The position numbers were made by a program, and so were the translations under genes. Shown piece after piece: positions 2,983-60,606 of a DNA stretch of 64,000 nucleotides. Source of the DNA: Bacilli bacterium (GTDB lineage Bacteria; Bacillota_I; Bacilli_A; RFN20; CAG-288); assembly GCA_041670045.1 (NCBI GenBank), contig JBAXZY010000001.1, positions 12,213 through 76,212 on the forward strand, read 5' to 3'. The stretch's first letter is position 1. The number at the start of each line of letters is the position of its first letter. The notes under the pieces are model-generated. The model saw only the letters and a program-made list of their open reading frames with translations, ran no database searches and was not told where the DNA came from.

Positions 2983-3000
2983 CCTCTAGAGAGGTTAATT

Positions 3001-4152: not shown

Positions 4153-4167
4153 AATTTCAAGAAATTA

Positions 4168-5213: not shown

Positions 5214-5370
5214 TAAGGTACTTTTGTCAATTTACTCAAAATGCTTTTACTAGTCTTTAACTATATATAAGAAAGTTTTCTTTTTATCATTTCTATTGAT
5301 TGAATTCTAAAACTAATCTATAAGTTAGATTATTGGTAAAATTAGTCGTATTTTTAAGCTGAATTTTTTT

Positions 5371-7698: not shown

Positions 7699-7712
7699 TT
7701 TTTGATTTTCCT

Positions 7713-12691: not shown

Positions 12692-12706
12692 CGCTTTTGC
12701 TTAGTT

Positions 12707-13815
12707 TCATGCTTGATTCACTATATCATAAACTGCATTAGGAAACATTGTTTCAAGATTATGAGGAACAGCGGGGTCTTTTGGGGAGGATTTCCTGTTT
12801 TTCATTATCTTGAGGCAAACACCTAAAATATAAGTTGCGTTAATCAAATAATATTTTCTGCAATCAACTTCGAGGGGTTCACGTAAATCAGACAATAGGG
12901 TTAAAACAGGAACATGAAAAAAACCATTATTCAATTTTATGCTCTCAATAGGCAGTCCTTGACCGTTTCCGGTTCCAACCAAACCATCAAAGTCAATTTC
13001 AACACTATGGTCAATCTTGATTACCCAAAAAAGGATACGAATATAAGTACAGAATTGTATGCCGGTAGAAAATCCACATGCTGTGAAATCGAAAGAAGAA
13101 TGGTCACAATCATTCCATTTTTTTCGGTTTTGATATTCTAATTCAGAATTCGCTAAATCTTCATAGGCTCCACGATGTGGAAATTTTGATTGAACAAATC
13201 CTTGATTTTCTGATGGATTCTCTCCATCGTTCGACCAATGAGAAGAAGTCCCAAATATTCCCGGGACAAAGATATGAATATCTTTCGATGATTCATCTTC
13301 TATGACATTTTGAATGTTGTCTTCTTTTGGAGTAGAAACGTCTGCATCATATTTCCTCTCCTTCAAATTCGATTTAAAATATTGGATTTTAGACTCCATG
13401 GTAGGGAATGCTGTATTATCTTCTAAAACATTTTGAAAAGAAGAAGCATCCGCTTCAGCACAGTTTTCATTATTTAAAGAAAATTCCGGAACTGAAGAAA
13501 CCTGTACCGCGTCTGCATCAAATTGCTTTGAAAGAGAGATGATTTTATTGGAAACCGCTTGGGCATTTTCAATGCTGTAAGGCTTTTCATCAGTTAAAAA
13601 ACTATTCTTTGGCAATTGATTGTTTGCTGGAATCTGAGACACATAGGTCGGTGAAAACCCAATGATTTGCTTATGTCTGATTCTGCATAGGCAATCTTTT
13701 TATTAGCCAATCTAACAGGTGATTCATTTCTGATTTCGGAAGAAACAGGGAAAGAAAGAAAAGCACCACATAAAGATGTTAAACAAAGAACAAGCTTGAT
13801 AATTTTGAATTCCAT
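12707..13815 (-). pseudogene. Putative lipoprotein gene split by a frameshift: signal-peptide ORF 13815..13594 plus body ORF 13642..12707
   Basis: The 73-aa ORF encodes 'MEFKIIKLVLCLTSLCGAF...' (signal peptide plus lipobox). The 311-aa body ORF starts at GTG in another frame, and the two overlap by ~48 nt around an A5 tract (ctaataaaaagatt). Confidence 0.45.
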
Positions 13816-24736: not shown

Positions 24737-26213
24737 ATGAAAAGAAAATCATTAATCATGATTCTTCTATCAATTCCTTTATGTTTAGCAAGCTGCGTGA
24801 CAAGTACAGGTACATCATCTGTTGACTCTGATACTGGTTCTTCATCATCACAAACAACTGATGCCGGTTCATCATCAACATCATCTCATTCCGGAGGACC
24901 ATGCGGTGGCACCTGAGGTGGTGGATCAGGGTCTGGTTCAGCTACTTATGGAGCTGCAACTGAGATTACCTCCACTGAAACTCAGACTGATAAGTCTTAT
25001 ACATCCTCTAATAGTGATGAAAGTGCCATTCTTTGTAAGACAGCTAATATCACTGGAACTATTCTGAATCCGACTGTCACTAAAACCGGTGACACCTCAT
25101 CAGCCGATAATTCCTCTTTCTATGGTCAGAATGCCTCAATCTTAGCTACTAACGGTACTTTAGACGTTAAAGGCGGAAGTATCAATTCTACTGCTAGCGG
25201 CGCACCTGGCTTATGCGGCTATAATGATGGTGTTGTCAATGTAGCTGATACAAGCGTTACTACCACTAAGAACTGATGCCTGCGGTGGAGGGACTGTCAA
25301 TGCCTGGAATATGACCGTATCAACAGCAGGGGAGCATTCCGCTCCCATCAGATCCAATCGCGGTGGCGGAACTATGCGAGTTGATGGTGGAGCCTATAAT
25401 TCTACCGGCGATGGTTCACCGGCTATCTATTCCACCGCTGATATTGCAGTTCATAATGCAACTTTAAATGCCTCAGGATCTGAAGCCGCTTCTATTGAAG
25501 GCAAGAACAGCATTCGATTGTTTGATTGTGACCTGACCGGCAATATGTCCGATTCCGAGCAGAATGATAACACTTGGGGTGTCATCCTCTATCAATCCAT
25601 GTCCGGTGATTCCACAGTCGGAACTTCCGAGTTTGCTATGGTTGGCGGAAAATTGAATATCAAAAACGGGGGATATTTCCATACCAACTCTACTTCATCG
25701 GAGTTTTTGCTTGATAATGTCACCTTGAGCCATGAAAACAATGATTCCTACGAATACTTGATCAGATGCTGTGGGAATAAAAGATGGAATTCCGGTGCCG
25801 GATCAACTTGCAACTTCACCTGTGTTGATCAGACTATGACTGGTAAAGTCATCTATGATTCAGCATCAACATTGAATCTTTATCTAACTGGTTCTACTGC
25901 TTGGACTGGTAACTCCAAAGTGGATTCTACCTATACCGGTTCAAAGACTTCTTCTATCTATATGGCTTCAGGATCCAAATGGATTGTCAATGGTGATTCC
26001 ACCATTGATAATCTCTATAATGCGGGCACCATTGTTGATAGCAATAATAAGACAGTCACTGTCATCGCTAATGGTACCACAAAAGTCAGTGGAACTTCTG
26101 ACTATACAATTACAGTCACTGGCTCTTACACCACTACCGCTGATCTATCAGATGCTTTAAGTGTACCTTCTTGGAGTGATTACGAGGTAACTAAGCCAGC
26201 TGATATTGCTTAG
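24737..26213 (+). pseudogene. Surface lipoprotein/adhesin-like gene (beta-helix-like NxT/GxS repeats) disrupted by in-frame TGA codons at 24914-24916 and 25274-25276 and a +1 frame change near 25272
   Basis: ATG 24737 encodes 'MKRKSLIMILLSIPLCLASC' (lipobox) then a Ser-rich linker. Frame 2 is open to 25276 apart from the TGA at 24914. The 300-aa ORF 25311..26213 continues the same repeat-rich sequence in frame 0 ('...TTTKN|DACGGGTVNAWNMTVSTAGEHS...'). Confidence 0.6.
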
Positions 26214-40618: not shown

Positions 40619-42028
40619 CTATTTCCAGCTGATGGAATTATACAAGGCCAGGTATTCTTTAGCAGACTTCGACCAGCTGTAGTCACCCTTCATGCCGTTT
40701 TCGATAAGGACATGGAAATCAGGATCATGATAGTGTCTAGCCGAGGCTCTGAAGGCATTGATGAAGCCATAATAATCAGTGTTAGAAAAAACATAGCCGG
40801 TCGCTTCATTGCCTAAAGAAACATCCTTCACGGTGTCATTGAGACCGCCGACATTGGAGACAATCGGAACCGAACCGTAGCGCATAGCAATCAGCTGACT
40901 GGTGCCACAGGGTTCAAAATAGCTAGGCATTAAGAAGAAGTCGCAAGCCGCATAAAGCATATGGGCTAAGTTCTCATCATAACGCTTAATGAAATAGACT
41001 TCCGGATGATTAAGTGACTTATAGAGGAAATCGTCTTCCATCTCACCAGTCCCAATTACAATGAGACGGGCATCCGGTTCCTTCAAGTTGTTGAAGGTGT
41101 CCATGATTCTCTCAACGCCTTTCTGAGATGAAAGACGGGTGATGGCGGCATATAAAGGACCTGTGAAATGATCGTCCATGCCACAGAGTTTTAAGATGGC
41201 TTCCTTATTGGCTTTCTTGCCAGCAGCATAATCATTGATGCCATAGTTCTGGGCGAGATTCTTATCCGTCTCCGGATTCCAAACATCAGTATCAAGGCCA
41301 TTGACAATGCCGGAGAAATCAAAGTGGCGGCACCAATCAATGATGGCACCAATGCCGCCAAAGCCGTCATGGTCGCTGATAAGCTCCCTTGCATGAGTCT
41401 TGGAGACAGTGTTGATTTTATCGGCTGACATGATGCCAGTTTTTAAGAAGTTGAAAGAGTTGCCAAGTCTAGCAAATCCAGTATCATAATAGCCGGTATG
41501 AAGATTGAAGAACAAAGATAAGTCTTCGCGATTAGCCCAGCCTTGATAAGCCGGATTATGAATCGTCAGAATCGTTTTAATGGATTTAGGATTGTAATTA
41601 AGCAATAAAGGCACGATAGCCGTTTCCCAATCGTTGCAGTGGACGACATCAAATTCATTGTGTCTTGTGATGAAGGTATTGACAGCCATCATGAAGCAGG
41701 CAAATCTTTCATTGTCATCGCCATAGCCATAAAGATTGTCTCTTTCAAATCGATCCATGGCCGTGAAATAGAAGTTGACACCGGAATTGACGACATGGAA
41801 AACACCGCATCCCTGAGTACGCCAGCTCATCTTGAATTCAAACTGATCATATAATTCCTTAATGGTCTCCGGATGCTTGTTCTTGACGATGTTGTATAGA
41901 GGCATGATGACAGAGACCTGCTGTCCCTCTTTGACAAGGGCTTTGCTATAGGAATAAATGAAGTCAGCCAGTCCACCGGATTTAGCGTAAGGAAGAGCTT
42001 CACTAGTTACAAGAAGAATGTTCATCAA
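40619..42028 (-). CDS. glgA: Glycogen synthase (GT5, ADP-glucose type)
   Basis: 'EALPYAKSGGLADF' is the KTGGL-type motif. The protein is 469 aa and overlaps glgD by 4 nt. Confidence 0.9.
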   Translation of the reverse strand: MMNILLVTSEALPYAKSGGLADFIYSYSKALVKEGQQVSVIMPLYNIVKNKHPETIKELYDQFEFKMSWRTQGCGVFHVVNSGVNFYFTAMDRFERDNLYGYGDDNERFACFMMAVNTFITRHNEFDVVHCNDWETAIVPLLLNYNPKSIKTILTIHNPAYQGWANREDLSLFFNLHTGYYDTGFARLGNSFNFLKTGIMSADKINTVSKTHARELISDHDGFGGIGAIIDWCRHFDFSGIVNGLDTDVWNPETDKNLAQNYGINDYAAGKKANKEAILKLCGMDDHFTGPLYAAITRLSSQKGVERIMDTFNNLKEPDARLIVIGTGEMEDDFLYKSLNHPEVYFIKRYDENLAHMLYAACDFFLMPSYFEPCGTSQLIAMRYGSVPIVSNVGGLNDTVKDVSLGNEATGYVFSNTDYYGFINAFRASARHYHDPDFHVLIENGMKGDYSWSKSAKEYLALYNSISWK

Positions 42029-43140
42029 ACAATGTCTCCTCTGGAAATATAGAGCGGATCATCCAGGGTTCCGACAACTTCGGAGATATGAAGAACCTGG
42101 GCTTCTTTGTCAACCACGGCATTCTCAATATGGGTATTCTCATCAATGATGGCATCGGAACCGATGACCGCATTCTTGATGATGGCGCCTTTCTTGACAA
42201 CAACGCCACGTCCTAAAACGGAATTGATAACAGTGCCTTCAATGATGGAACCATTAGCAATGTAGGAGTTTTCAACATGGCAACCAGACTTGTAAAGAAC
42301 CGGAGGAGTATCATAAGTCTTGGTATAAATCGGCCATTTGTCGGCAAAGAGTTCATGGAAGGTGTTTTCATCCAATAGCTCTAAAGAGAACTTCAGATAA
42401 TGGCTTAAAGAATCAAAGCAACGGACATAGTCGTTCAGTTTGACAGCTTTGATCAGAACGGAAGAAGACAGGTAATTGAGGGTATCGGATAAACCAAAGA
42501 AAGAACTGGTTCCTTTAGCATAATCAAGTAAGCTTTCCAGCATCGGATAATCCATGATGTAGGTGCCTAAAGAAATATCGCCTTCATCCATTTCGCCACG
42601 GTTAGGTTCCATCTTCGTGATCTTTCCGCGGTCAGTCAGCCAGATCTTGCTTTGATTGATGAAACTCTTCTTCAGGTTAGTGCCATGCATGTAAAGCATG
42701 GTGATTCTAGCACCGCTAGCAATATGTTCCTGAATCAAAGCCTTGAAATCCGCCTCATAAACCATGTAGGGAGGAGCAATGACAACATAATCAGGTTTGA
42801 CCTGTCGCATAAACCACCGGTTTTCGTTGATATCAGCGACATCAGTGTTATAGCCTGGGTTTGCAACATTAGGTTCATCATACAGAACCTGGAAATCACC
42901 GATCTTGGTATTGTTGATCCAGGAACGGCCATTGCCGACATGACGGGAAAGGGAACGGATATGATTCTGACAGAGAATGCCGATTGAGGGAATGCCGGAA
43001 TTGAGGAAGTTAGATAGCGGAACATCAATAAAAGCATAACGTCCTAAAAAGGAAGTAGAAGCAATGGCGCGATGACGAGTCATCGGACCAAAGTCGGGAT
43101 TATCGAAGCAATTAACTAAGCCAAGTACTTTGACTGACAT
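42025..43140 (-). CDS. glgD: Glucose-1-phosphate adenylyltransferase regulatory subunit GlgD
   Basis: It has the nucleotidyl-transferase fold plus a left-handed beta-helix C-terminus and lacks the GGxGxRL catalytic loop. It follows glgC. Confidence 0.75.
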   Translation of the reverse strand: MSVKVLGLVNCFDNPDFGPMTRHRAIASTSFLGRYAFIDVPLSNFLNSGIPSIGILCQNHIRSLSRHVGNGRSWINNTKIGDFQVLYDEPNVANPGYNTDVADINENRWFMRQVKPDYVVIAPPYMVYEADFKALIQEHIASGARITMLYMHGTNLKKSFINQSKIWLTDRGKITKMEPNRGEMDEGDISLGTYIMDYPMLESLLDYAKGTSSFFGLSDTLNYLSSSVLIKAVKLNDYVRCFDSLSHYLKFSLELLDENTFHELFADKWPIYTKTYDTPPVLYKSGCHVENSYIANGSIIEGTVINSVLGRGVVVKKGAIIKNAVIGSDAIIDENTHIENAVVDKEAQVLHISEVVGTLDDPLYISRGDIV

Positions 43141-43154
43141 GTTTCTCTCCTCCT

Positions 43155-44264
43155 TTACTTGTCATTGACTAGAAGCGCATCAGTAGGCGTTCCAATCTTG
43201 TCTTGCGAAACCACAACCGAGCTTCCGACAATGGCATCAGTGACTTTGACACCGGCCTTGATGGTAGCTCCGGGCATAATGAAGCTGTCTTTGACGACAG
43301 CGCCTTTTTCAATTGTGACTTCATTGGAAATAACAGAATGATAGACACTGCCTCTGACAACGGCGCCTTGATTGACGATAGAATCATCAACAACGGCACT
43401 AGGAGAGATGAACTGAGGCTTAGAGAAGGTATCAGCGGAATAAATCTTGAAGCTAGGGGAGAAAAGATCAAGTGTGCATTTGTCATCCAACAAATCCATA
43501 TTGGCTTCCCATAAGGAATGAATCGTTCCGACATCCTTCCAATAGCCAGTGAATGGATAGGCAAAAAGACGTTTTCCGGCATCTAAAAGAGTCGGCAGAA
43601 CATCCTTGCCAAAATCATGGCTTGAGCCTTTAGTGTCGGCATCCTTGATCAAAGCCTCACGGAGCAGGGAATAAGTGAAGATATAGATACCCATTGAAGC
43701 ATAGTCGGATTTAGGAACTTTAGGTTTCTCCTGGAACTCATTGATGCGGTTTTCCTTGTCGGTGCAGACGATGCCAAATCTAGGGGCCTCGCTAAGAGGA
43801 ACCTTGATGCAGGCAATAGTCACATCAGCGGCATTCTTCTTATGGAATGCCAGCATCTCGGAATAATCCATTTTATAAATATGATCGCCTGATAGAATGA
43901 CCACATATTCGCAGTGGGTCTTATCCAGCCAATCAATATTCTGATAAATAGCATCAGCTGTTCCGGAATACCAGTTAGCACCCTTAGGTGTCTCTCTAGG
44001 AGGAAGAATCGAAGCTAAAGCCCCGGTTCCGTTCAAACCCCAGTTTCTTCCCGTACCGATATAATTATTCAAAACCGTCGATTCATATTGAGTAGCAACA
44101 CCGACGGCATTGATTCCGGAATTGGCAACATTCGAAAGTGGGAAATCGATGATACGGTACTTGCCTCCGAAAAATACGGCCGGCTTAGCGACTTTGGCTG
44201 TCAAAGACTGCAAACGTGTCCCTCGGCCACCAGCTAGGATTAATGCAACCATCTCTTCTTTCAT
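43155..44264 (-). CDS. glgC: Glucose-1-phosphate adenylyltransferase
   Basis: 'ILAGGRGTRL', 'FGGKYRIIDF' and a C-terminal hexapeptide-repeat helix. Confidence 0.9.
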   Translation of the reverse strand: MKEEMVALILAGGRGTRLQSLTAKVAKPAVFFGGKYRIIDFPLSNVANSGINAVGVATQYESTVLNNYIGTGRNWGLNGTGALASILPPRETPKGANWYSGTADAIYQNIDWLDKTHCEYVVILSGDHIYKMDYSEMLAFHKKNAADVTIACIKVPLSEAPRFGIVCTDKENRINEFQEKPKVPKSDYASMGIYIFTYSLLREALIKDADTKGSSHDFGKDVLPTLLDAGKRLFAYPFTGYWKDVGTIHSLWEANMDLLDDKCTLDLFSPSFKIYSADTFSKPQFISPSAVVDDSIVNQGAVVRGSVYHSVISNEVTIEKGAVVKDSFIMPGATIKAGVKVTDAIVGSSVVVSQDKIGTPTDALLVNDK

Positions 44265-44563: not shown

Positions 44564-44589
44564 AAAAACCGGCAGTGTTTGACTGCCGG
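44564..44589 (-). terminator. Rho-independent terminator after the SMC-like gene (ccggcagt-gtttg-actgccgg; T-run on the minus strand)
   Basis: An 8-bp GC-rich stem lies 7 nt past the stop and is flanked by AAAAA on the plus strand. Confidence 0.65.
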
Positions 44590-44595
44590 ATTAAT

Positions 44596-47500
44596 TTACT
44601 TATTTTCGGAATCAGAATCAGATGATGGGGTAACAGCTGAAGCATCTGCTGCCGTAGTATCAGCTTTAGCATCGGTTGGAGTAGCAGCCGTCTCAGTTGT
44701 GGCTTCTTCCGGTTTTGCCGCACTTAGAGGAAGAGTAGCCGTCTCTAGGTCCGGGACAGCTTCTTCACCGTTAGCTAAGGAAGCAACCGGATTACTGTCA
44801 GACTTCTTTTCTCTCTTCTTCTCTTCATAGACATCCAAGCCAGAACGCTTACGCTTCTCATCATGGATGGTGACTAAGATCAGGTCAACGTAAGAGACCA
44901 AGTCTCTCAGTTTCTCACTAGGAGTCGATAAGATAGCCTGTAAACCGAACTGTCTTAATAAGTCAGTCGATTTCATGATACGGGCACTATCCATCTTGGA
45001 GAAGGCTTCATCGAAGATGACTAAACGGAGGGTGTTGTTGTCTTTAGGGTTGTTGGCTCTCGTCAATGAGGCAAAGGAAGCTAAAATAGCGATATAGAAC
45101 GGAGTCTGAGTCTCACCGCCGGACTGACTCTTGAATGATCTTCCTAAGGAGATCGTCTGGGAGCCTTCTCCGGTGCCTCTTGTGACCAGTAAGTCAAAGA
45201 GAATATAAGTAGTATAGGAAGTAAAGGTCTCAACATTCTTCAGCAACTGCTCACGCTGCTCACCGGTAGCACTGGTAGAGGAAGAAATCAAAGCGAAGAG
45301 ATCATCCATCGTGGACTTGTACTTCTCCATGAAAAGATTCTCGGCATCGCCGGCTTTAAGAAGAAGCGGATCCATAATCATATTGTAGTATTCAAGATAA
45401 TCCTTGTTGGGTGAAACCTTGAACTGATAGGAATCACGGCCAAAGCGGTTATCGGCTAAGGCAACATTGAGATCATCAATCTGACTGTTGACCGTTTCAA
45501 TGGCGGTTCTCAGTTTATAGATGAAGTCATCCTTGAACTCTCTGATTGACTGTTCATGAGCGGTGACGATCTTGCTCTGATAATCAGGAAGCATGACCTT
45601 GGAGATATTCTCCAGCTCCTTATCAAACTCACTGTTGTCTTTATCGTTGGTGACATTGTAGTTAAGGGTATAGGTGGCACAGTAGTCGCTTCTCAGTTTC
45701 AACAGGTTATCCTTATCGCCGCGCTGTTTGTTCTGGGCCTGAATGTATTCACGGCTGGCTTCGACTCTGATCTGGCTTAAAGTCATATGCTGTTCATCGA
45801 AGAGCTTGTTATAGAAAGGATCATATTCCTTGTTGACGACTTCGCCGTCAAAGGCATCCAACTGAACTTTGAAGTCAGAAGCATTCTTCATAGCTAACGG
45901 GATTTCATTGCCATTAAGACGGTTAGTCTCATTCAATAAGGAACCACGTTCAGTAAGCAGATCCTCTCTCTCTTTGCTGATAGTAGCAATATCCGCATTG
46001 ATGGCCTCAATCTTCTTTTCGACTTCAGACATGTCTCCTAAAGTAGCATCATGCATCTCACTGTCGACATTAGTAAGATTCTGCTGAAGCATAGAGATAT
46101 CATGGCTACGATCAATGTCGCTCTGATAAGTGTTGCATTCCTCAACGGACATCACCGGCAGAGTCAATAAAGTCTGTAACTTATTGAGAGCTTCCGACAA
46201 TAAGGAGTAACGCTTGTTCATCTCCTGATAATCTTTAGCTGATAAAGCCTTAGTATCATTGGAGACCTTGGTTCCTAAGAAATAGACGGCGGCATTGGCT
46301 TTATTCAGATACCAAGTGGCAAAGCCACGGTAGCCGGTGCAATCGGAAAGCAAGCCGGAACCCGACTGTCTTGCCTCATCAAAGGTAGTGCACTTCTTGA
46401 TTCTTCCTAAAAGATAATCGGAATAGGCTCTAGCACCTTCATCATTGGTATCAATCAGGTTGGCGATAGAATCATCGTTAGGATCGATATTGGCACGCAA
46501 CAGTCTTTCCGTATCAACTAAGGAAACACGGTAATAATGGTAAGTATCGGTCATTTCCTTCAATAAACGGTTAGCTTCCTCATAATACTGAGGATTGACG
46601 AAGAAGTTGAATTTCTGGGCATAGAGGACAGCCTCTAAAGCCATAGTCCATTCGGGATCATTGACATCCACTAAGTCGCAGAAAATATGAACATAGGCAT
46701 CGGAGTGACGGCTCTTGAGACTGGTTTCCAGCGACTGACGGATAGCCTGATAGTTTGGTCCAAGTTTCTCAAAAGGTTTCTTGCCTTGGTTGACGGCGCT
46801 TAAATCCGACTGCAAAGACTGCAAAGAATCAGAGACTTCGTAGAACTCATTGTTGAGAAGGGAGCGTAAAGACAAAGTCTCGTTGCGAAGACTCTCCATG
46901 TCGTTTCTAAAGGCTTTGACATTGTCAAAATCCACCTGGTCATTATCAACTTCGGTCAATAACTCCTTGGATTCATCGGCAATATCCTTAGCTAATTCCA
47001 ATAATTCATCAAAGCTCTTCTGAATCTTGGTTCCTAATCTTTCGGAATTGAACTGGGAATAATAAAGAGAGAATTCCGAGCAGATCTTCTGATAATCGGA
47101 GCAGTAATTGACAAGCTTAGTCATGACTGACGATACGGACATCTGAATTGAAGTGATCTGTTTAGTGATGTTCTCTTTCTTCATCGACAGCTTTTCAGTC
47201 AAAGAATAGTTGCTCGACTGCAGTTTCTTAGCCTGATAGGAAGACAAGTCACTGCGAAGATCTTCCATCTGATGGTCAAACTGGGCCAGCTGATTGGAAA
47301 TGGCCATCAAACGGTCATTGTCCTTCTTCAGCTGATCATTCAAATTATCCAGTTTCTTCTTGTTTTCTTCATAATAGACACGGGCATTGATATAGGTCAG
47401 CATATCAAGCTTGCGGTCATAGGAACGATAAGACTCATACGTCTCATGAATCTTATTTAGAGTCTCGACTTTAGCCGTTAATCTCTTGGCTTCCAATTCC

Positions 47501-48231
47501 AGAATCTTGTACTGTTCGATATTCTTCTGCATCGGAGTGATATCGACATTGATGTCGGCATCACAGATATACTCAGTGATGAAAGAAGAAATATCGCTGA
47601 TCGGGGAGAAAGAGACGGCCTTCTTGAACAAAGAGAAATATTTATCGGAAAGGTTTCCGAAGGCTTCCTTGATGAAGCTCTGATATTCAATATCGGAATC
47701 AAAGAAACGGAAATGGTTGACTTTGTAGTTAGCTCTAGCCCAAGTAGAAAGCTCACGGTAACGTAACGGACGGACTTTCTTTGAATTAGTCTCGGTTTCA
47801 TTGTTGTTGAAGTCATTAGCCGGGAAAGCGGAATCAAGATAGAAATAATGCTTATCAATGGAATCGGAGGCATCGACATCGAAGACGACACCTAACGTGA
47901 AATAACGGTTTTCGGTGTCATCAAAAATTTCGATGGCAATATAAGAAGTGAAGCTGCCGTCACGTAAGTTCATGACGGAGCCATCGTCCTTAATACCAGT
48001 CTGTCCTCGTAAATAAGAGAGCAAAGTACGACCGGATCGGCCCTTTTCGTTAGCGGCCTTATTGAAGTTATCAGGTCTAGTGGTACCAAGAATCAGAATC
48101 TGAAGAGCATCAATGATAGTGGATTTACCAGTGCCGTTAGGACCAGTCAAGAAGGTGATGTTCTTAATATCAGTCGTAGTATTGGAAAAGTAATGCCAGT
48201 TGATTAAACGCAGTTTAGTTAGGTTTTTCAT
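44596..48231 (-). CDS. MukB/MksB/JetC-family SMC-like ATPase (condensin-like) with an acidic, low-complexity C-terminal tail
   Basis: 1211 aa. The N-terminus 'LRLINWHYF...ITFLTGPNGTGKSTIIDAL' parallels the MukB 'LTLINWNGF...LSGGNGAGKST' head. Long coiled-coil arms follow. The C-terminal head has the signature 'SQSGGETQ' and Walker B/D-loop 'LVIFDEAFSKMD'. It is translationally coupled to the upstream gene (TAATG). Confidence 0.8.
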   Translation of the reverse strand: MKNLTKLRLINWHYFSNTTTDIKNITFLTGPNGTGKSTIIDALQILILGTTRPDNFNKAANEKGRSGRTLLSYLRGQTGIKDDGSVMNLRDGSFTSYIAIEIFDDTENRYFTLGVVFDVDASDSIDKHYFYLDSAFPANDFNNNETETNSKKVRPLRYRELSTWARANYKVNHFRFFDSDIEYQSFIKEAFGNLSDKYFSLFKKAVSFSPISDISSFITEYICDADINVDITPMQKNIEQYKILELEAKRLTAKVETLNKIHETYESYRSYDRKLDMLTYINARVYYEENKKKLDNLNDQLKKDNDRLMAISNQLAQFDHQMEDLRSDLSSYQAKKLQSSNYSLTEKLSMKKENITKQITSIQMSVSSVMTKLVNYCSDYQKICSEFSLYYSQFNSERLGTKIQKSFDELLELAKDIADESKELLTEVDNDQVDFDNVKAFRNDMESLRNETLSLRSLLNNEFYEVSDSLQSLQSDLSAVNQGKKPFEKLGPNYQAIRQSLETSLKSRHSDAYVHIFCDLVDVNDPEWTMALEAVLYAQKFNFFVNPQYYEEANRLLKEMTDTYHYYRVSLVDTERLLRANIDPNDDSIANLIDTNDEGARAYSDYLLGRIKKCTTFDEARQSGSGLLSDCTGYRGFATWYLNKANAAVYFLGTKVSNDTKALSAKDYQEMNKRYSLLSEALNKLQTLLTLPVMSVEECNTYQSDIDRSHDISMLQQNLTNVDSEMHDATLGDMSEVEKKIEAINADIATISKEREDLLTERGSLLNETNRLNGNEIPLAMKNASDFKVQLDAFDGEVVNKEYDPFYNKLFDEQHMTLSQIRVEASREYIQAQNKQRGDKDNLLKLRSDYCATYTLNYNVTNDKDNSEFDKELENISKVMLPDYQSKIVTAHEQSIREFKDDFIYKLRTAIETVNSQIDDLNVALADNRFGRDSYQFKVSPNKDYLEYYNMIMDPLLLKAGDAENLFMEKYKSTMDDLFALISSSTSATGEQREQLLKNVETFTSYTTYILFDLLVTRGTGEGSQTISLGRSFKSQSGGETQTPFYIAILASFASLTRANNPKDNNTLRLVIFDEAFSKMDSARIMKSTDLLRQFGLQAILSTPSEKLRDLVSYVDLILVTIHDEKRKRSGLDVYEEKKREKKSDSNPVASLANGEEAVPDLETATLPLSAAKPEEATTETAATPTDAKADTTAADASAVTPSSDSDSENK

Positions 48232-49106
48232 TAATTATTGTCTCCTTCATCCTTCTTTTCAGTTGAAGAAGAATCCTCAGAAACTGAGGTGTCAGTATCA
48301 TCTTTGACAGGAATGTCAGGGTTAAGGGGCTCGGTTTCGGTTTTAGCTTCATCCTTGACTGGAATATCAGTGTCTGGATTGCCGGAAGGAGTTGAAAGCA
48401 AGGCCTTAGCTAAGGTCTGAGAGGCATTCGGGTCAAGATTGTCGGAAGTATCGGCATTATTAGCTAAATTTGCTTTATCAAATAAGGAAGGTTCTTCTTC
48501 AGTTTCCGGTCCCTTAGTCAAAAAGTCGTATAAAGTATTCATCTTTTCGGAAGAAATGACATATTTGATAGTTGGCAGAATAAAGAAAGAATAGCTAGGA
48601 TCACCATATGTGCCGTTAGCTCTGGAGACGACATTATAGGAATCCAACTGACGCAAAGAAGAAGCAATCGTGCTAGCCGATAAACGTTTTGATAAATTGG
48701 ATAGACCCATTTCCTGAACTAAGGAATTCAAGGCGCCGCTAGTCATCATGACTTCAGTCTCCTGAGGTGTCTTGCTGATGGCTCCTTCATAAAAGGAACG
48801 AAGAGCGTAAACAATAAGGGTAGTGACACTATCCAGACGTAAATGGTTTCTTTCAGCTCCGGAAGAGACAAAAACAACTCCATCATCGTCATTTTTCGTC
48901 ATCTGCATATCCATATAAGAAAGATAGTCCTCGAAGGTCGAGTAATGTCTTTCAATAAAAAGATAATCCGGATCGGCACGGAACATGCCACTCTTTTTAT
49001 CAAAGGTCTTTCTAACAATGAAGCACTGGTAGAGCAAATCATTTACTGTTTCGGAGAACAGAGCACGATCACTGCGACTCATTTTATTGTAATCATCAAT
49101 AAACAT
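48231..49106 (-). CDS. Putative MukE/MksE/JetB-like (KITE) subunit with an acidic C-terminal extension
   Basis: 291 aa. The assignment rests on the middle position in a kleisin-KITE-SMC gene order and on size. No sequence motif was verified. Confidence 0.45.
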   Translation of the reverse strand: MFIDDYNKMSRSDRALFSETVNDLLYQCFIVRKTFDKKSGMFRADPDYLFIERHYSTFEDYLSYMDMQMTKNDDDGVVFVSSGAERNHLRLDSVTTLIVYALRSFYEGAISKTPQETEVMMTSGALNSLVQEMGLSNLSKRLSASTIASSLRQLDSYNVVSRANGTYGDPSYSFFILPTIKYVISSEKMNTLYDFLTKGPETEEEPSLFDKANLANNADTSDNLDPNASQTLAKALLSTPSGNPDTDIPVKDEAKTETEPLNPDIPVKDDTDTSVSEDSSSTEKKDEGDNN

Positions 49107-49111
49107 ACTTT

Positions 49112-50599
49112 TTACCTCACACTCTTATTTCGACGGGTGAATTTATAAAGTGGCATATAGTAGCCGTCATAATCAATTCGATCTTCCAGTTTCGTAGCAA
49201 CATAAGGGATGATTCCTAAGTTAGCCTTCAGGATTCCTAAGATCATCAAGACTAACTGATCGGTGCTGTAGATGTTGACATCATAAGTGGTGATCTCATC
49301 CTTGCCTTGCATGTTTTCTTCAATGAATTCGGTGATGGCTCTATCAGAGAAACGGTTTAGTTCATTATCGAAGACCTGATTCATCAATTCGGTCTGTTCA
49401 TCAAAAGGAATTTCATCTTCCAAAGGCAACGGTTCACCTTCTTCGATTTCCCCTCTTCTGAAGGGCATCGTCAAAGAGGAACTGTCCACATAGCCTTGAC
49501 GGTAGAAGGAAATAGAGTCGCTGGCTTTCTCTAAAAGTGGCATTTCTTCGTACTTTAATGCCGGATTGTTCTTGATTTCATTAGCTAAGGCCAGAATAAT
49601 GCGGTCAATCTTGCCTTTGACGGTCTTATCGTTGCTAGAAAGGTAATTGACCTTTCTTTGAACGGCTTCAGTATAGTTGGCGTTAGCAGAATCGATTTCA
49701 TTGAAGGATGAAGTCAGACGACTGAAGATATCAATGACTTCCTGAATGGTTTTAATGACATTCTTGGCAATGGTGGCTTCTTCAACGGTTCTATTAAGTG
49801 GCTCAGTTTTAGCTTCTCTGACTAATAATGTAATGATTCTTTCGGATTTAAGCCAATTCGAAAGCAGTTTGATAGTCGGCTGAGAATATAAGCCTAAGGA
49901 ATCAAATGTCTTCATCGGATGATAGTATTTATCGGAAATATCGACTCGGTATTCATCAAAATGCTGTTTCAAAGCCTGGTTAGGATCTAAAACCGAAGTC
50001 AGACGATTGCCAAAGACACAGATCTGCTGTCTTAATAAGACAACCGACATCTCAATTGAATCCGCATTCTGACGGGCATTAAGAAGAGAACGATACATAT
50101 AGTCATCTTCTTTCTCGTCTTCCATCTTCAGTTCGGCATAAGTCTGATGGACTAATGGCAGATAGGATCCAATATCACTAGTCAGATCATCCATTATTTT
50201 CAATAGCTGAATGGAATAAGCGGGAATATAAACGTATTCCACGTTGTTCTTTGGATTCTTAGAAATAATGAACCAGCCACAGCGAGAGAGCTTGCGGATG
50301 ATGTAATTGACTTTCTGACTTAATAAAGCCTCAGTATTGTCTAAAGGTATAGTGCTTTCGGCATCGATTTTTTCGATATCGTCATGGTCATCAAGACGGT
50401 CTGTTTCCACATTAAACAAAGACAGGATTTCTTCACCCTGACTCTTTAAAAGATTGGAATAATCGGTCTTTTTTATATCTGTTTTATATAATCGAAGAAG
50501 ATGATAAAGAGAAATCAGTGCGAAGGCATAGATTGATTTATATTTTCGAGATAAAGGGGCAAAAAGGTCTTCTGGAATTTTTTCAAATAAACGAGTCAA
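49112..50599 (-). CDS. Putative MukF/MksF/JetA-like (kleisin) subunit
   Basis: 495 aa and the first gene of the three-gene operon. The assignment is by order and size only. Confidence 0.45.
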   Translation of the reverse strand: MTRLFEKIPEDLFAPLSRKYKSIYAFALISLYHLLRLYKTDIKKTDYSNLLKSQGEEILSLFNVETDRLDDHDDIEKIDAESTIPLDNTEALLSQKVNYIIRKLSRCGWFIISKNPKNNVEYVYIPAYSIQLLKIMDDLTSDIGSYLPLVHQTYAELKMEDEKEDDYMYRSLLNARQNADSIEMSVVLLRQQICVFGNRLTSVLDPNQALKQHFDEYRVDISDKYYHPMKTFDSLGLYSQPTIKLLSNWLKSERIITLLVREAKTEPLNRTVEEATIAKNVIKTIQEVIDIFSRLTSSFNEIDSANANYTEAVQRKVNYLSSNDKTVKGKIDRIILALANEIKNNPALKYEEMPLLEKASDSISFYRQGYVDSSSLTMPFRRGEIEEGEPLPLEDEIPFDEQTELMNQVFDNELNRFSDRAITEFIEENMQGKDEITTYDVNIYSTDQLVLMILGILKANLGIIPYVATKLEDRIDYDGYYMPLYKFTRRNKSVR

Positions 50600-50835
50600 G
50601 GTTATTACCTACCTTTCGGTAATTAATTCAACTACTGAAAATTATAATAGACCATTTCTTTTAATACAATAGAAAACAGGAAATTTATTTTAGTCTTCAA
50701 TACACTTTCATAGGAAACAACTTTTTTGTCAGTAACGACTATACATGTACTCAAAATGGCAATTTAGTTTGATTAAGCTCACATAGAGGCAAAACCTAGC
50801 TCAAGTAAGGGACAAGGAGTGCTATAATTCAATTT

Positions 50836-51762
50836 ATGGAATCGCGGTATTCAGAGCTTACCAAAGGTCTCAGTTTGGCAAAAAAAGAAAGAATCTGGGA
50901 AATAGATTTCCTTAGATGCCTTCCTTTAATATTGATGGTTTTATATCACTTTTGTTTTGATATGGACTTTCTTCCCTCAGTCATCAGCAACTACGCTGCT
51001 TTCAGCACCAGTCATCCTGGCTTTAGTGCCTTTCAGATTTATGCCGCCGGAGTCAGTGAAAGCCCTGATATTGAGCTCTACCTAGTACCATTGTTTGGAG
51101 GAATCTTCCTTTTTGTCTGTGGGCTGTCGACTTCCTTATCCCACAACAATTTAAGAAGAGGCCTATTGCTTTGGTTAGGAGCTTTAGTCATATCTTTGGC
51201 AACTGGACTAGCTAGTTACTTTTTAGAATCAGACCTCTTTATTAATTTCGGTGTGATTCATTTAATGGCCTTCTGTGTGACTCTCTATGCTCTCCTCGAT
51301 TCCCTTTCTTTGAAGCTATTTAAAAAGGAACTCTCTTCTTTGTTCCTTTTGGCTTTAGGGTTACTCATCCTTTTGATAGGTGTCTTCCTGAACATTGGTT
51401 TTAAAACCTCAACTGGCAGTATCTATATCTGGCCAGTTACCTTCTCTAATGGAGGATTGGTGAACATGCTTAAGAAAGATCCCTGGTCATTAGTTTTATC
51501 TGCCCTTGGCTACTATGCCAACACCACTGACTGGTGGCCGATATTTCCTTTTGGGGGTGTCATATTCATTGGCATGGCTTTAGGAAAGAATCTTTATGGG
51601 ACTACCCATCAATCCTTGTTCCCAAAAATAAGCAACTGTAAAGTCATCAAGCCTTTTTGCTTCTTTGGCCGTCACACCATTTGGGTGTATCTGCTCCATC
51701 AACCGATTCTTATTTTAATTCTTTTTGTCGTCTTAACAGCAATGGGAGCAAAAATAATATGA
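50836..51762 (+). CDS. Integral membrane protein, DUF1624/HGSNAT-like acyltransferase family
   Basis: 'WEIDFLRCLPLILMVLYHF' is typical of the DUF1624 N-terminus, and there are ~9 TM helices. Confidence 0.5.
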   Translation: MESRYSELTKGLSLAKKERIWEIDFLRCLPLILMVLYHFCFDMDFLPSVISNYAAFSTSHPGFSAFQIYAAGVSESPDIELYLVPLFGGIFLFVCGLSTSLSHNNLRRGLLLWLGALVISLATGLASYFLESDLFINFGVIHLMAFCVTLYALLDSLSLKLFKKELSSLFLLALGLLILLIGVFLNIGFKTSTGSIYIWPVTFSNGGLVNMLKKDPWSLVLSALGYYANTTDWWPIFPFGGVIFIGMALGKNLYGTTHQSLFPKISNCKVIKPFCFFGRHTIWVYLLHQPILILILFVVLTAMGAKII

Positions 51763-53348
51763 CATTATATCAATCACTTAAACAATATGACGGAAGTCCT
51801 AAGACAGCCCTCTATTTCCGAAGTGAAAGTATCAGCTACTCGTCATTGATCAAAAGAGTGGATTCCTATGCCGACAAGCTTGTAAGTTTAGGAATAACTG
51901 AAAACACAGTAGTTTCAATTCTAGCTCCAAACGTTCCGGAAACTGTCATTGCTTTATATGCTTTGAATAAAATAGGTGCCATCGTCACTATTCTTCATCC
52001 TCTCATTCCACCGTCAATGCTATTAGAATCACTTCGTGAAACTAAAAGCTGGTACCTATTAATTCTGGATGCCCGTTATCATTCATATGAAAATGAGTTA
52101 AAGAGTTTTCCTATTCCAGTTTTCTTTCTGACAGCTTACCCGGATTTAAAGCCTTTGATAAAATTAGGATTCAAAATCGGATACCATAAAAGTCTGACTT
52201 CTATCAATAAAGAAAAATACCTATACCTAATTCAATCCCCTAAAAGAAAATTCAAAACCAACACTGATGATCAAAAACCATCAGTCTACTTACGAAGTGG
52301 AGGAACCACTGGCAAGAGCAAGACCGTCATTTTAAATGATACGAATATTCTCTACCCTGGAAGCCAGTCTGAGATTATCCTCAATCATGACTTATCAAAT
52401 GTTTCAATGATTGGTTTATTACCCATGTTTCATGGATTTGGTTTGTCAATGGGTATTGTGGCCCCTTTAATGAACCAGGCTGCCAGCTGCTTAATGATTA
52501 AGTTCAATTCCAACGAAATCATTAGAAAAATAAAGCAAGGAAAACTAAATGTATTAATTACGATTCCTTATATGACAGAGAAGCTATTAGCCAATAAACA
52601 TTTCAAAGGAAAAATGCTACAGAAAATATACGCTACTTATATTGGTTCTGATAAACCAGATCCACGTCTATTTAATCACTTCAATGATCTGATGGAAGAA
52701 TATGGTTCTCAGAATAGATTGTTGGAAGGATATGGATTAACAGAAACCGTGACTGTGAATTTTGTAAATACATTGTCAAACAATAAAACAGGTTCAGTAG
52801 GGAAACCATTACATCAAGTGAGATTCAGAATTTGCAAAGACAACGATTATAGAAACGACATCGGCCCCAATAAAGTTGGACAGATTTTAATCAGTTCACC
52901 AACAGTCTGCTTAGGTTACCTAAATACAAAACAAGAAGATCAGCCTTTTTATATTGATGCTGATGACACCCGTTATTTAATCACTGGTGATGAAGGGTAT
53001 TATGATTCAGACGGTTATTTGTTCTTTAAAAACCGGGAACATGAAGTCTATAAAATTGCCGGCTATAACATCTTCCCTACCGACATAGAGCAAACCGCAA
53101 ATAAAGTAAAAGGCGTCAAACAAGCTGTAGTCCTTTTCCATGAAAACAAAAATCATCCTTATCTATCATTGATTATAATCAGTGATAAAACTAAGGATGA
53201 TTCAGTGCTTCTAATAGATGTCAAAGACTACTTAGAGAAGAAACTAATCAAATATGCTCTTCCAGAAAAGACGTTCATCTTAGAAAGTCTTCCTCATACG
53301 GCAATCGGTAAGATCGATAAAGCTAAGTTAATTTGTTTAGGTTACTAG
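51759..53348 (+). CDS. AMP-dependent synthetase/ligase (acyl-CoA synthetase family). Start ATG 51759 overlaps the upstream stop (ATGA); the ORF track gives 51657.
   Basis: 'YLRSGGTTGKSKTV' (AMP-binding P-loop), 'GYGLTE' and 'ITGDEGYYDSDGYLFF' are the adenylation-domain motifs. Confidence 0.8.
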   Translation: MTLYQSLKQYDGSPKTALYFRSESISYSSLIKRVDSYADKLVSLGITENTVVSILAPNVPETVIALYALNKIGAIVTILHPLIPPSMLLESLRETKSWYLLILDARYHSYENELKSFPIPVFFLTAYPDLKPLIKLGFKIGYHKSLTSINKEKYLYLIQSPKRKFKTNTDDQKPSVYLRSGGTTGKSKTVILNDTNILYPGSQSEIILNHDLSNVSMIGLLPMFHGFGLSMGIVAPLMNQAASCLMIKFNSNEIIRKIKQGKLNVLITIPYMTEKLLANKHFKGKMLQKIYATYIGSDKPDPRLFNHFNDLMEEYGSQNRLLEGYGLTETVTVNFVNTLSNNKTGSVGKPLHQVRFRICKDNDYRNDIGPNKVGQILISSPTVCLGYLNTKQEDQPFYIDADDTRYLITGDEGYYDSDGYLFFKNREHEVYKIAGYNIFPTDIEQTANKVKGVKQAVVLFHENKNHPYLSLIIISDKTKDDSVLLIDVKDYLEKKLIKYALPEKTFILESLPHTAIGKIDKAKLICLGY

Positions 53349-53422: not shown

Positions 53423-54643
53423 CTATGCATAGAAAGAGCCATTAATGATATGGGCACCATTAATAGTGATGCCGGCTTTATCATATCCGACTCCTAATAC
53501 CATCTCGCCACGATAGGAAACAACATTAGAAGTGTAGTAAATAGTGGCAACCGCATCTACATAATCGGTAACCTTGGAATGATATTCACCAGAAACGGTA
53601 AAGGTGCCGGATTTGGAATCAAAATGATAAAGTAAATCAACAATCATATCTTTAGAAGCAGCACCAAAATTATCATACCCGCCCCATTCATCCATATAGA
53701 AAGATCCACAGCTTCCAGCCACTCCACCAGGATTCCATGTACCCCATCCCCACCAATCAGAACGGAACGTCCATCCGCCATTTGTCCAATTAGGTGAATA
53801 AATTTCTGATACCCAATTGTAGTTGACTGCTGGATAAGCATCTAGTTTTTTGTTTTCAAAAGAAATAAGGAAATCAAAATCTTCGGTTCCATCAAATTTC
53901 CAAGTGGCCACAGCAGAATTCCATTTGTCCCCGCTATCTGCAATCGGAGTCGTCACTAAATCAGCATTAAAGCCATTTTCATCGAGCAATTCATAATCAA
54001 TAGGTGAAGCATCATCAAAGAAAGAAGACTGATAACTTCCTAAATGGTTGTTAACTTTGGCCTGGAAAATCATTATTGTATCAGTTGATTTTCTAAATCC
54101 TAGCGTTTTATAAGTGACATAAAGTTCAAAAGATGCCTTATATAGCTTAGTTTTACTATCCAATGCCATCTTACCGCAATAGCCTTCAGTAAAATTCATC
54201 AGGCCATTTGTAGATGCATAAATGCTCTCCCTGACCGTGGGCTTTTCATAAGTACTGATTCCAATTTCAAAGGAATCACTATCGGAATACAAAGTCTTTC
54301 CAGTTAAAGGAACATCAGTGTAGAGTTCTGCAAAAACAAAAATACCTTTGGTTGAAGTAGTAGCATAAAATGTAGCATAATTCTTTTCGTCTTTACTAAT
54401 GGTATATGAATTAGCTTTAACTTTTTCAGTGTAGTTCTTTTCGTTCATAATACCGTCATAATCTAATAAAGGAGCTGAAGAAGAAATCTTAGTGCTAGAT
54501 GAAGAACTAACTTCCACGGAGTCCGAGTCGGAATTGCTGATCTGACTAGTATCGGAATTTGAAGATGTTCCACCACAGCTAAACAACGACAATAAAATAA
54601 TTGAAGAAAGAACAATAGTCTTCTTGGATTGAGTGTGTTTCAT
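53423..54643 (-). CDS. Lipoprotein of unknown function (beta-rich)
   Basis: 'LLSLFSCGG' is the lipobox and a Ser-rich linker follows. The protein is 406 aa. Confidence 0.6.
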   Translation of the reverse strand: MKHTQSKKTIVLSSIILLSLFSCGGTSSNSDTSQISNSDSDSVEVSSSSSTKISSSAPLLDYDGIMNEKNYTEKVKANSYTISKDEKNYATFYATTSTKGIFVFAELYTDVPLTGKTLYSDSDSFEIGISTYEKPTVRESIYASTNGLMNFTEGYCGKMALDSKTKLYKASFELYVTYKTLGFRKSTDTIMIFQAKVNNHLGSYQSSFFDDASPIDYELLDENGFNADLVTTPIADSGDKWNSAVATWKFDGTEDFDFLISFENKKLDAYPAVNYNWVSEIYSPNWTNGGWTFRSDWWGWGTWNPGGVAGSCGSFYMDEWGGYDNFGAASKDMIVDLLYHFDSKSGTFTVSGEYHSKVTDYVDAVATIYYTSNVVSYRGEMVLGVGYDKAGITINGAHIINGSFYA

Positions 54644-58443: not shown

Positions 58444-60606
58444 CTAATCCTTCTTAACACTAGTCTTATGAGAGATAAAGATATTGACTGATAAAGAATT
58501 GATGATGGCCATACGGATATAGAAGCCACTCTTTTCCACATTGCCGGAATCATTGAAAACCAAATTGACATAGTCATTGAAACTATAGACGAAGGATTTC
58601 TTGGAAGGATTAAAGATAACAAACATCGTGAAATCATTGAAATTATAGTTGATCTTCACCGATCCTTCAGGAAGATTTTCAAAGGTAATATTAGTAGCTA
58701 AATTATCATATTCACTATCTGGTAAAGTATAAAATCTCTTAACAAATTTGACGGCATCGCAAAAGAAATAATAGAGATTCTTCCTACTATTCAGCAATGA
58801 ATAATCAAAGCCGTTTACTTTATCACCGGAATTATAGGAATTTGCAAGGCCGCCCTTTGAGTGACCGATTTCCTGTCCTTCATGAAAGAACGGAATACCA
58901 CAGGCTAATAAGACAGCCATGTTGCACATCTTGATTCTCTTTAAGATTTCTTCCGGCTTATCATCAACGCAGCAAGAAGTCAATTTATCAAAAAGGGTAT
59001 TGTTATCATGGCATTCCACATAATTGACAGATTGACCAGGCTCTGTAAACATCGGTGGGAAAGCCAAAGCTACTGAGGATCCTAAAAAGACGTGTTTAAA
59101 GCCATCAAGATAATTGACATCACCTGAAAGATAGCCTTTGACTAATATTTCGGATCCAGAGCTTTTTCCTTTAACGACATCACGGAAACGGTCGTTGAAG
59201 AAAGAGCAGAAAGGTAATTTGTCAGCATTGAAGTAACTGCCTTTCTGATCAGCGGGAAGATTAGTCCACAAATCCCAGCCTTCACCATAGAACATAATGT
59301 TAGGCTTGATTTTCTTTAAAGTGTCATAAGCTAATTTCAAAGTATCAACATCAATGATTCCCATCAAATCAAAACGGAAACCATCGACATCATAGAAATC
59401 AATGAAATGAACTAAGCAGTCCACAATCAGTTTTCGGACCATATAGTTGCGGCTTTCAATGTCATTGCCACAGCCAGAGCCATTAGATAAAGTCTGATCA
59501 CCGTTATAACGGAATGTATACTGAGGGACTAAAACGGATAAAGAATTATAGGGTTCCGAGAAAACGTGATTGAAGACCATATCTAAATTGACACGCAAAC
59601 CTTTTTGATGAAGAGAGCCTATCAATTCACGTAATTCCAAAACTCTTTCATAAGGATCATTCGGGTCAGTGCAGTAACTGCCTTCTGGAGCAAAGAAGAA
59701 AGCAGGATCGTAGCCCCAGTTATAGGAATTGCTAGGATGATCATCATCAATGGTCTGGAAATCATAGACGGGCTGCAACTGAACATGAGTCACGCCTAAA
59801 GAAGCTAAATAATCTAATCCGATAGGTTCATTGGTCTTAGTCTTATAACCAGTCTGACTCAAGCCTTTATAAGTGCCTTTATCAGGAATCGAAGTAAGAC
59901 TAGTCATATCTCTGACATCACATTCATAGATAATTGATTTCATCCTATCCGAAAAAGCCGGTAAACAATCATCGAAGGTCAGAACCTTTTTGACTCTCTC
60001 AGGATTAATGACAAAAGCATGCTGTGAATTGCTGTCTAAGGAATAGGCATATGGATCAACTATCTCCTGAGTCTTGCCAAAGACCGTGACTGAATAAGTA
60101 TAACGGGCTTCATCTAAATCACCAGTCACTGTCAAGGAGAAGACACCGGTATTCATATCATGAACTAGATTAAGGCATTCATCGATAGAAGAGCCTTTTC
60201 TTTTTAGATTAAGAACAATCCTAGTAGCAAAAGGAGAGAAAACCCGGAAAATGGTTTTATCAGAGGCATAAATCGCCCCTAATTGCCCATCATAACGGTA
60301 TTTTGCTTCAAATTCCTTCGTTCTGCCTAAGAAGCCAATATCAACCGGAACTGAGAAATTATGGGGAGTGAGAAGAGTATAGCTAAGTCCAGGAACGTAA
60401 TTGATTCCTTTGACGACAACCGTATAAATATAACTGGATGTCGATTCACTCATACTTACCGGAGTCACCTGGCAGAGATATTTGCCATTTTCGTATAAAT
60501 TGAAATACTTCAAAGCAAAGGAAGAGAAATCCTTGTTCACATATACTTCAATGACATTGCTGCTTTTGGCCGTGGCCTGAATTAAAGCTTTTTCCATTTT
60601 GATCAA
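58444..60606 (-). CDS. pulA: Type I pullulanase/glycogen-debranching enzyme (GH13)
   Basis: 'YNWGYDP' is the type I pullulanase signature. 'GFRFDLM', 'GEGWD' and 'YVECHDN' are GH13 conserved regions II, III and IV. Confidence 0.85.
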   Translation of the reverse strand: MIKMEKALIQATAKSSNVIEVYVNKDFSSFALKYFNLYENGKYLCQVTPVSMSESTSSYIYTVVVKGINYVPGLSYTLLTPHNFSVPVDIGFLGRTKEFEAKYRYDGQLGAIYASDKTIFRVFSPFATRIVLNLKRKGSSIDECLNLVHDMNTGVFSLTVTGDLDEARYTYSVTVFGKTQEIVDPYAYSLDSNSQHAFVINPERVKKVLTFDDCLPAFSDRMKSIIYECDVRDMTSLTSIPDKGTYKGLSQTGYKTKTNEPIGLDYLASLGVTHVQLQPVYDFQTIDDDHPSNSYNWGYDPAFFFAPEGSYCTDPNDPYERVLELRELIGSLHQKGLRVNLDMVFNHVFSEPYNSLSVLVPQYTFRYNGDQTLSNGSGCGNDIESRNYMVRKLIVDCLVHFIDFYDVDGFRFDLMGIIDVDTLKLAYDTLKKIKPNIMFYGEGWDLWTNLPADQKGSYFNADKLPFCSFFNDRFRDVVKGKSSGSEILVKGYLSGDVNYLDGFKHVFLGSSVALAFPPMFTEPGQSVNYVECHDNNTLFDKLTSCCVDDKPEEILKRIKMCNMAVLLACGIPFFHEGQEIGHSKGGLANSYNSGDKVNGFDYSLLNSRKNLYYFFCDAVKFVKRFYTLPDSEYDNLATNITFENLPEGSVKINYNFNDFTMFVIFNPSKKSFVYSFNDYVNLVFNDSGNVEKSGFYIRMAIINSLSVNIFISHKTSVKKD

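Follow-up and report, generated by a model that had tools for sequence, protein, structure and literature searches.

The window analysed here is a 64,000-nucleotide (nt) stretch of an uncultured Bacilli genome (assembly GCA_041670045.1, contig JBAXZY010000001.1) of the order RFN20 in the Genome Taxonomy Database (GTDB). It contains a three-gene operon, jetABC, which encodes a kleisin (JetA), a KITE protein (JetB) and an ATPase (JetC) resembling the structural maintenance of chromosomes (SMC) proteins. The three proteins belong to the families that make up the motor of the Wadjet plasmid-restriction systems, and the gene for the Wadjet nuclease, JetD, is absent from the surroundings of the operon. 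Across RFN20, jetABC is vertically inherited and under strong purifying selection. The view of JetABC as a vertical, selected and nuclease-free complex rests on fixed synteny, co-divergence with the neighbouring glycogen (glg) genes, a low ratio of nonsynonymous to synonymous substitution rates (dN/dS) and conserved motifs. On balance, the locus is probably a nuclease-free Wadjet descendant of the Firmicutes type that has been domesticated into an MksBEF-type SMC complex with a chromosome-organising role. The original prediction offered an MksBEF-type condensin and a Wadjet derivative that had lost or relocated its nuclease as the two options; synteny, co-divergence and dN/dS values like those of the neighbouring genes favour the first.

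Inheritance and selection of jetABC

A genome scan with JetC identifies at least 563 relatives, and the analyses use the best 80 of them. All 80 are metagenome-assembled genomes (MAGs) of uncultured Bacilli from gut and bioreactor sources, with JetC identities from 86% (L001, the closest relative) down to 36%. Among them, L074 (JAKVOO) and L030 (JALCRV) are assigned to the RFN20 families CAG-826 and CAG-288, respectively, and the genus UBA7642, which matches the name of the L001 MAG, is placed in CAG-288 (PMC9302107). Among the matches listed in homologue searches with JetC, JetA and JetB, all belong to this clade and none serves as an outgroup. Set against seven outgroup JetCs, the clade is monophyletic. 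The closest of these outgroups (19-28% identity) come from Cohnella and Rossellomorea, both with JetD, and from Agathobacter, without it.

Of 79 loci, 75 keep the order jetA-jetB-jetC with tight junctions and three intact open reading frames (ORFs); four hold partial operons, three of them cut by a contig end. Downstream, glgC follows on the same strand in 54 of the 61 informative loci, and glgB is located upstream in 35 of 58. The pairwise identity of JetC co-varies with that of GlgA, GlgD and GlgC (Spearman 0.80, 0.72 and 0.63), roughly as closely as GlgC and GlgA follow each other (0.71). In close pairs, jetA, jetB and jetC have dN/dS values of 0.01-0.08, and glgC, glgD and glgA show the same. 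These values, the intact ORFs and the catalytic motifs kept down to 36% identity contradict a decaying Wadjet remnant without current function, a reading to which the missing effector gene would lend itself and whose probability we consider negligible.

Five MAGs carrying the Bacilli-type glgB-jetABC-glgCDA locus (L015, L017, L018, L039 and L053) are labelled Alistipes onderdonkii, Prevotellaceae, Prevotella sp., Oscillospiraceae and Azospirillum sp. CAG:239, which suggests taxonomic mislabelling or binning contamination.

Absence of JetD

A JetD hidden Markov model (HMM) was built from the five annotated JetDs of plasmid-borne jetABCD operons. At E<=10, it finds nothing in the six frames of the 64-kb window or of an extra 10-kb flank on each side, and nothing in the 80 related loci with their 10-kb flanks, recovering only its five source proteins. 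Moreover, Pfam and PADLOC scans reveal no JetD domain in the neighbouring ORFs. In leave-one-out searches, the model regains held-out Firmicutes JetDs with E-values between 2e-34 and 3e-58 and reaches only E=0.11 for a distant proteobacterial JetD, so it is sensitive for the relevant type and not for every JetD. These results uphold the earlier claim that no JetD candidate lies within 6 kb of the operon and extend it to the window, its flanks and the 80 relatives. An adjacent jetD, which would have made the locus an ordinary Wadjet, is found neither here nor beside jetC in any relative. By comparison, jetD lies directly 3' of jetC in five of the seven JetC-bearing plasmid loci examined.

Several ORFs were considered as JetD and rejected. 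The segment L074:2919-3710 reaches 14 bits (E=0.007) with one of the five leave-one-out profiles, and it was judged spurious on those grounds. The ORFs found between jetC and glgC in relatives (341-405 amino acids (aa), or pairs of ~150 and 310 aa) are not JetD-like by Pfam, matching instead a DEAD-box helicase, a radical SAM enzyme, a tocopherol-cyclase-like protein, DUF3137 or nothing. At the same place, a distant subclade (L045-L050, L055, L066, L071 and L074) has a conserved gene of ~300 aa, often following an ORF of ~150 aa, with a weak-to-significant DUF3137 match and no likeness to JetD. In the window itself, the 406-aa ORF at 53423-54643 on the minus strand is similar to JetD in size, and it matches neither the JetD HMM nor any Pfam, PADLOC or NCBIfam model; it carries a lipoprotein-like signal (…LFSCGG) and a Ser-rich linker.

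Architecture of the JetC ATPase

JetC matches the PADLOC JetC1 model PDLC00519 at E=4.1e-293, with residues 1-1143 aligned to positions 1-1093 of the 1097 in the profile. It has one head half at each terminus, with long coiled coils as arms and a hinge at about residues 500-650, and Pfam detects AAA_29, SbcC_Walker_B and, at 518-622, a weak match to SMC_hinge. The N-terminal head matches the JetC chains 9qxt and 8as8 in the Protein Data Bank (PDB) at 1e-16 to 4e-18 and is the only region of the protein linked in this way. Matches to other families are below their cut-offs: 21.9 bits for Pfam MukB_N (cut-off 23) and 48.6 bits for the canonical SMC model TIGR02168 (cut-off 567). In the NCBIfam scan there is no RecN match, and the RecF match is far below threshold. 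An identity as RecN, SbcC or Rad50 was therefore rejected: only the generic SbcC_Walker_B and AAA matches point that way, the best full-length match is JetC, and kleisin and KITE genes lie directly upstream. This agrees with the original grouping of the 1211-aa protein with MukB/JetC.

The head motifs on which that grouping relied are present and conserved in the 80 relatives: INWHYF at 85% or more, SGGETQ at 95-100%, and FDEAFSKMD, covering Walker B and the D-loop, at 100%. Walker A is kept throughout the clade as GxNxxGKST or GxxxxGKST. In the distant subclade L044-L080 it reads GxNAxGKST (GQNAAGKST, GLNASGKST) instead of GPNGTGKST.

Beyond the end of the family profile, JetC has a C-terminal tail of 68 aa that is predicted to be disordered. 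It is the longest among the 80 relatives. In close relatives the tail is acidic and measures 7-45 aa, apart from L012 and the truncated L028, which lack it; the most distant members of the clade have no tail or a few residues. The tails of L006, L007, L010, L021 and L023 share GTQM[RK]IPDA[SN], a motif that the longer tail in the window does not contain.

Fold of the JetA kleisin

JetA matches Pfam PF18982 (E=1.9e-62) and, across residues 3-492, PADLOC JetA1 (E=2.9e-84). Plain and profile sequence searches of the PDB give spurious matches only, so structure prediction was required, and no profile similarity to the DUF3375-type JetA is detectable by hhalign. The AlphaFold2 (AF2) model, with a predicted local distance difference test score (pLDDT) of 78, contains a winged helix at both the N- and the C-terminus, together with a helical bundle and a disordered linker at residues 365-397. 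Its top Foldseek match in the PDB is the Wadjet-II JetA 9qe0_E (2.9e-6), and further top matches are MukF (9gm7, 3euh and 1t98) and the E. coli JetA 8q72_E.

JetB, its N-terminal peptide and its tail

JetB matches Pfam DUF4194 (E=1.4e-16) and PADLOC JetB1 (E=1.9e-63). Its folded domain (residues 1-~200) consists of two winged helices in the AF2 model. A profile of the clade matches the PDB weakly and exclusively at JetB chains (8dk1 at 0.002), and Foldseek ranks JetB (8dk1/8as8) first, followed by MukE and then the KITE proteins Nse1/3. With family models matching all three proteins and the JetA and JetB folds in agreement, the kleisin-KITE-SMC order proposed from the window holds.

The remainder of JetB forms an acidic tail (DE 26%, ST 22%, KR 8%) that is predicted to be disordered, with pLDDT <50. 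In the window it contains EPSLFD, two copies of DIPVKD and a terminal EGDNN. These motifs recur where JetC identity is at least 55%, with [PS]SLFD just past the domain, one to three DIPV copies and a C-terminal KEGGNE/EGDNN (EGGN) among relatives including L001-L027. The tail has 91 aa in the window and 13-90 aa in close relatives. Distant relatives lack it, the most distant ones mostly having 3-15 aa in its place. The unusual acidic tails earlier reported for both proteins are thus real and lie outside the family profiles, and they are lineage-specific additions. We propose that they may serve as regulatory or partner-binding peptides.

At the other end of the protein, residues 1-9 (49080-49106) read MFIDDYNKM in the window and MFEEE[YF]EKL in relatives. 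F2 is present in 97% of the clade, and the N-terminal 9-mer ranks 24th in conservation among 192 nine-residue windows. In canonical type I systems, the N-terminal IFDR motif of JetB contacts JetD (PMC10586767). JetBs from JetD-carrying systems begin MSIFDT, MPMLFDL, MVFQEL and MGFETE. Judged from these letters, the clade N-terminus resembles the JetD-contacting motif, and it is retained without an adjacent JetD. In the same clade, the tail seems to have gained the SLFD motif. This motif resembles the IFDR/LFDL peptide that contacts JetD and also the core of the beta-clamp-binding QLSLF motif.

Because the IFDR-like peptide is kept and SLFD apparently added with no JetD nearby, a distal partner stays under consideration. 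The operon could thus belong to a plasmid-restricting Wadjet whose JetD, or a substitute, is encoded elsewhere and recruited via the JetB N-terminal peptide, the SLFD motif or both. The conservation of this N-terminus in a JetD-less clade, its likeness to the JetBs of JetD-bearing systems and the known contact of IFDR with JetD speak for such a relocated nuclease. However, no JetD occurs within 10 kb in 80 of 80 loci, in contrast to the position right after jetC that is usual in the plasmid loci, and the JetB of the JetD-less Agathobacter operon also starts MFE, so the peptide may act independently of JetD. We regard this reading as quite unlikely.

Proposed role of the complex

Vertical inheritance, a housekeeping context and purifying selection make a chromosome-organising role the most likely one for this complex. 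JetC would dimerise via its hinge, with the JetA kleisin bridging the JetC heads. JetA would itself dimerise via its N-terminal winged helix and carry JetB dimers. DNA loop extrusion may then be powered by the intact JetC heads as they bind and hydrolyse ATP. Because the Toprim nuclease JetD is lacking, extrusion could not end in DNA cleavage, and the absence of cleavage makes folding of the host chromosome and help in its segregation, as for MksBEF of Pseudomonas aeruginosa, more likely than plasmid restriction.

The housekeeping context is seen on both sides of the operon. The adjoining ORFs comprise the glycogen genes and those for a membrane acyltransferase, an AMP-ligase, a GH3 glycosidase, a PlsC-like acyltransferase and the lipoprotein-like protein, and the wider surroundings are core genes (rsmB-rlmN-prpC-prkC-rsgA-rpe, adhE, xfp, hrcA-grpE-dnaK-dnaJ and ftsK). 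No integrase, mobile gene or defence island is found around jetABC in the window and its flanks, whereas the JetD-carrying plasmid systems adjoin Abi, RES, toxin-antitoxin and Mob genes.

This setting also bears on a defence function that needs no nuclease. By analogy with eukaryotic Smc5/6 acting on episomes, JetABC might recognise small circular DNA by loop extrusion and silence, compact or sequester it, without cutting. We consider this unlikely, since, according to the cited papers, the systems tested need JetD/MksG for plasmid defence and an order-wide fixed place among housekeeping genes is atypical for defence genes.

A further alternative concerns the other condensin of bacteria. RFN20 might have replaced Smc-ScpAB with the domesticated Wadjet motor, leaving JetABC as the only condensin of the lineage, as happened with MukBEF in gamma-proteobacteria. 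Retention across the order under housekeeping-like constraint fits this idea. So does the failure to find smc, scpA or scpB in the ~84 kb that surround the locus and in the 1.6 Mb covered for its relatives, a very small part of any one genome; rnc and ftsY are not found there either. On the other side, P. aeruginosa has both MksBEF and Smc-ScpAB, and even minimal Mollicutes genomes are known to keep smc. The replacement would mean that a MukBEF-like takeover had happened a second time, independently and in Firmicutes, and it seems very unlikely. If it had taken place, the clade-specific tails and IFDR-like peptides might have been repurposed to recruit a new chromosomal partner.

Several points weigh against the domesticated, MksBEF-type complex that we favour. 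All members of the clade are uncultured and known from sequence alone. The absence of jetD covers the neighbourhood, and a relocated nuclease could lie elsewhere in the genome; the conserved IFDR-like N-terminus of JetB (MFEEE[YF]) could likewise mean that a JetD-like partner persists. In addition, small genomes can retain defence systems vertically too, and the need for a second condensin depends on the Smc-ScpAB status of the lineage.

Operon layout and genomic surroundings

The three coupled minus-strand ORFs of 495, 291 and 1211 aa lie exactly where the original prediction placed them, and their junctions are tight (Table 1). Direct reading of the junction letters gives a gap of 5 nt between the jetA stop and the jetB ATG, and jetB and jetC overlap in TAATG. 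Upstream of jetA, a putative promoter combines a -35 element TTGTAT (50669-50664), a 17-nt spacer and a -10 element TATAAT (50646-50641). The -10 element is perfect and the -35 element has only three of six matches, which places the site under the threshold of the promoter scan. The Shine-Dalgarno sequence GAAAGGTAGG follows at 50617-50608.

Downstream of jetC, the hairpin CCGGCAGT-caaac-ACTGCCGG is followed by TTTTT. The terminator scan agrees with the direct reading, and comparable hairpins occur 3' of jetC in 42 of 79 relatives. The clean terminator described after the SMC-like gene is therefore present, although it begins 6 nt past the stop codon and not 7. As claimed, the operon adjoins glgC, which starts ~330 nt further on with its own promoter-like site and ribosome-binding site, and the divergent membrane-protein gene on the 5' side encodes an HGSNAT-type membrane acyltransferase.

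Table 1 Features of the jetABC operon (positions in the window)
Feature	Position	Strand	Description
jetA	49112-50599	minus	kleisin subunit, 495 aa, TTG start preceded by GAAAGGTAGG
jetB	48231-49106	minus	KITE subunit, 291 aa, ATG start
jetC	44596-48231	minus	SMC-like ABC ATPase, 1211 aa
Putative jetA promoter and ribosome-binding site	50608-50669	minus	read from the letters; candidate assignment
Intrinsic terminator-like hairpin 3' of jetC	44569-44589	minus	8-bp stem, 6 GC pairs, then TTTTT
JetB acidic C-terminal tail	48234-48506	minus	residues ~201-291, past the end of the PADLOC JetB1 profile
JetC acidic/Ser-Thr/Ala-Pro-rich C-terminal tail	44599-44802	minus	residues 1144-1211, past the profile end

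The glycogen operon is split in the window, with glgB at 58444-60606 and glgC-glgD-glgA at 40619-44264, ~14 kb apart. The gap contains the PlsC-like acyltransferase, the GH3 glycosidase, the lipoprotein-like ORF, two plus-strand genes (the HGSNAT-like acyltransferase and the AMP-ligase) and jetABC; many relatives have the simpler order glgB-acyltransferase-jetABC-glgCDA. With its called TTG start, the AMP-ligase ORF (51657-53348, plus strand) overlaps the acyltransferase gene (50836-51762, plus strand) by 106 nt. Its true start is probably further downstream, the public gene call being 529 aa as against 563 aa. Elsewhere in the window, ORFs of 775, 347, 311 and 300 aa (5371-7698, 11648-13642 and 25311-26213) have no Pfam or NCBIfam match, and the flank past the window start (L088) holds a cluster of Big_2/LRR surface-protein genes.

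Significance and comparison with known systems

Reviews propose that the Wadjet defence motor gave rise to MukBEF and MksBEF through loss of the nuclease and domestication for maintaining chromosomes. The RFN20 clade would be a clean natural example of this process, being deep and syntenic, with JetD-bearing Firmicutes systems among its nearest sampled relatives. It also supplies many sequences for asking what accompanies domestication, such as new disordered tails and a kept IFDR-like peptide, and RFN20 genomes are a place to ask whether a Wadjet-derived complex coexists with or replaces Smc-ScpAB in Firmicutes. In practice, defence-system finders should not score RFN20-type jetABC loci as plasmid restriction.

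A JetD-less JetABC, MksBEF, is already an established category, and a 2023 review derives it from JetABCD through JetD loss (PMC10586767). Published descriptions, on which the comparison with MksBEF is based, generally present that system as dispersed by horizontal transfer. The order-wide fixed synteny in Firmicutes is therefore a modest new fact and not a new kind of system. MksBEF of P. aeruginosa is likewise a kleisin-KITE-SMC operon of the Muk/Jet lineage without MksG/JetD. The present operon differs from it in the host phylum, in its PF18982-type JetA and in the acidic JetB and JetC tails, which are specific to the clade.

Compared with the Wadjet type I systems (JetABCD of E. coli GF4-3 and P. 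aeruginosa PA14), JetA, JetB and JetC of the window match the PADLOC type 1 models full-length, and the in-operon JetD nuclease (DUF3322 aCAP and DUF2220/Toprim) is missing. The same absence, together with the housekeeping context and the vertical inheritance, separates the operon from type I members such as the Cohnella and Rossellomorea plasmid systems. MukBEF has the same kleisin-KITE-SMC order, and the structural searches rank its MukF and MukE subunits among their best matches; the likeness is one of fold only, as MukB_N falls below its cut-off and no MukE or MukF Pfam match is found. A nuclease-free chromosomal role would be shared with MukBEF, which, unlike the present operon, is confined to gamma-proteobacteria, where it replaced Smc-ScpAB. 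The complex does not belong to Smc-ScpAB itself, since JetC is far below the SMC cut-off and its partners are JetA and JetB, not ScpA and ScpB.

Another JetD-less counterpart is the jetABC operon of Agathobacter rectalis (L082; NZ_CP143948.1, locus 2759-8351), located on a 252-kb secondary replicon (chromid) of a cultured gut Lachnospiraceae. This gut Firmicute also has a PF18982-type JetA, a DUF4194 protein and JetC without jetD, differing in its JetC (19-24% identity) and in its neighbours, a gamma-carbonic anhydrase 3' of jetC and an MFS transporter. It provides a culturable JetD-less case that is open to experiment.

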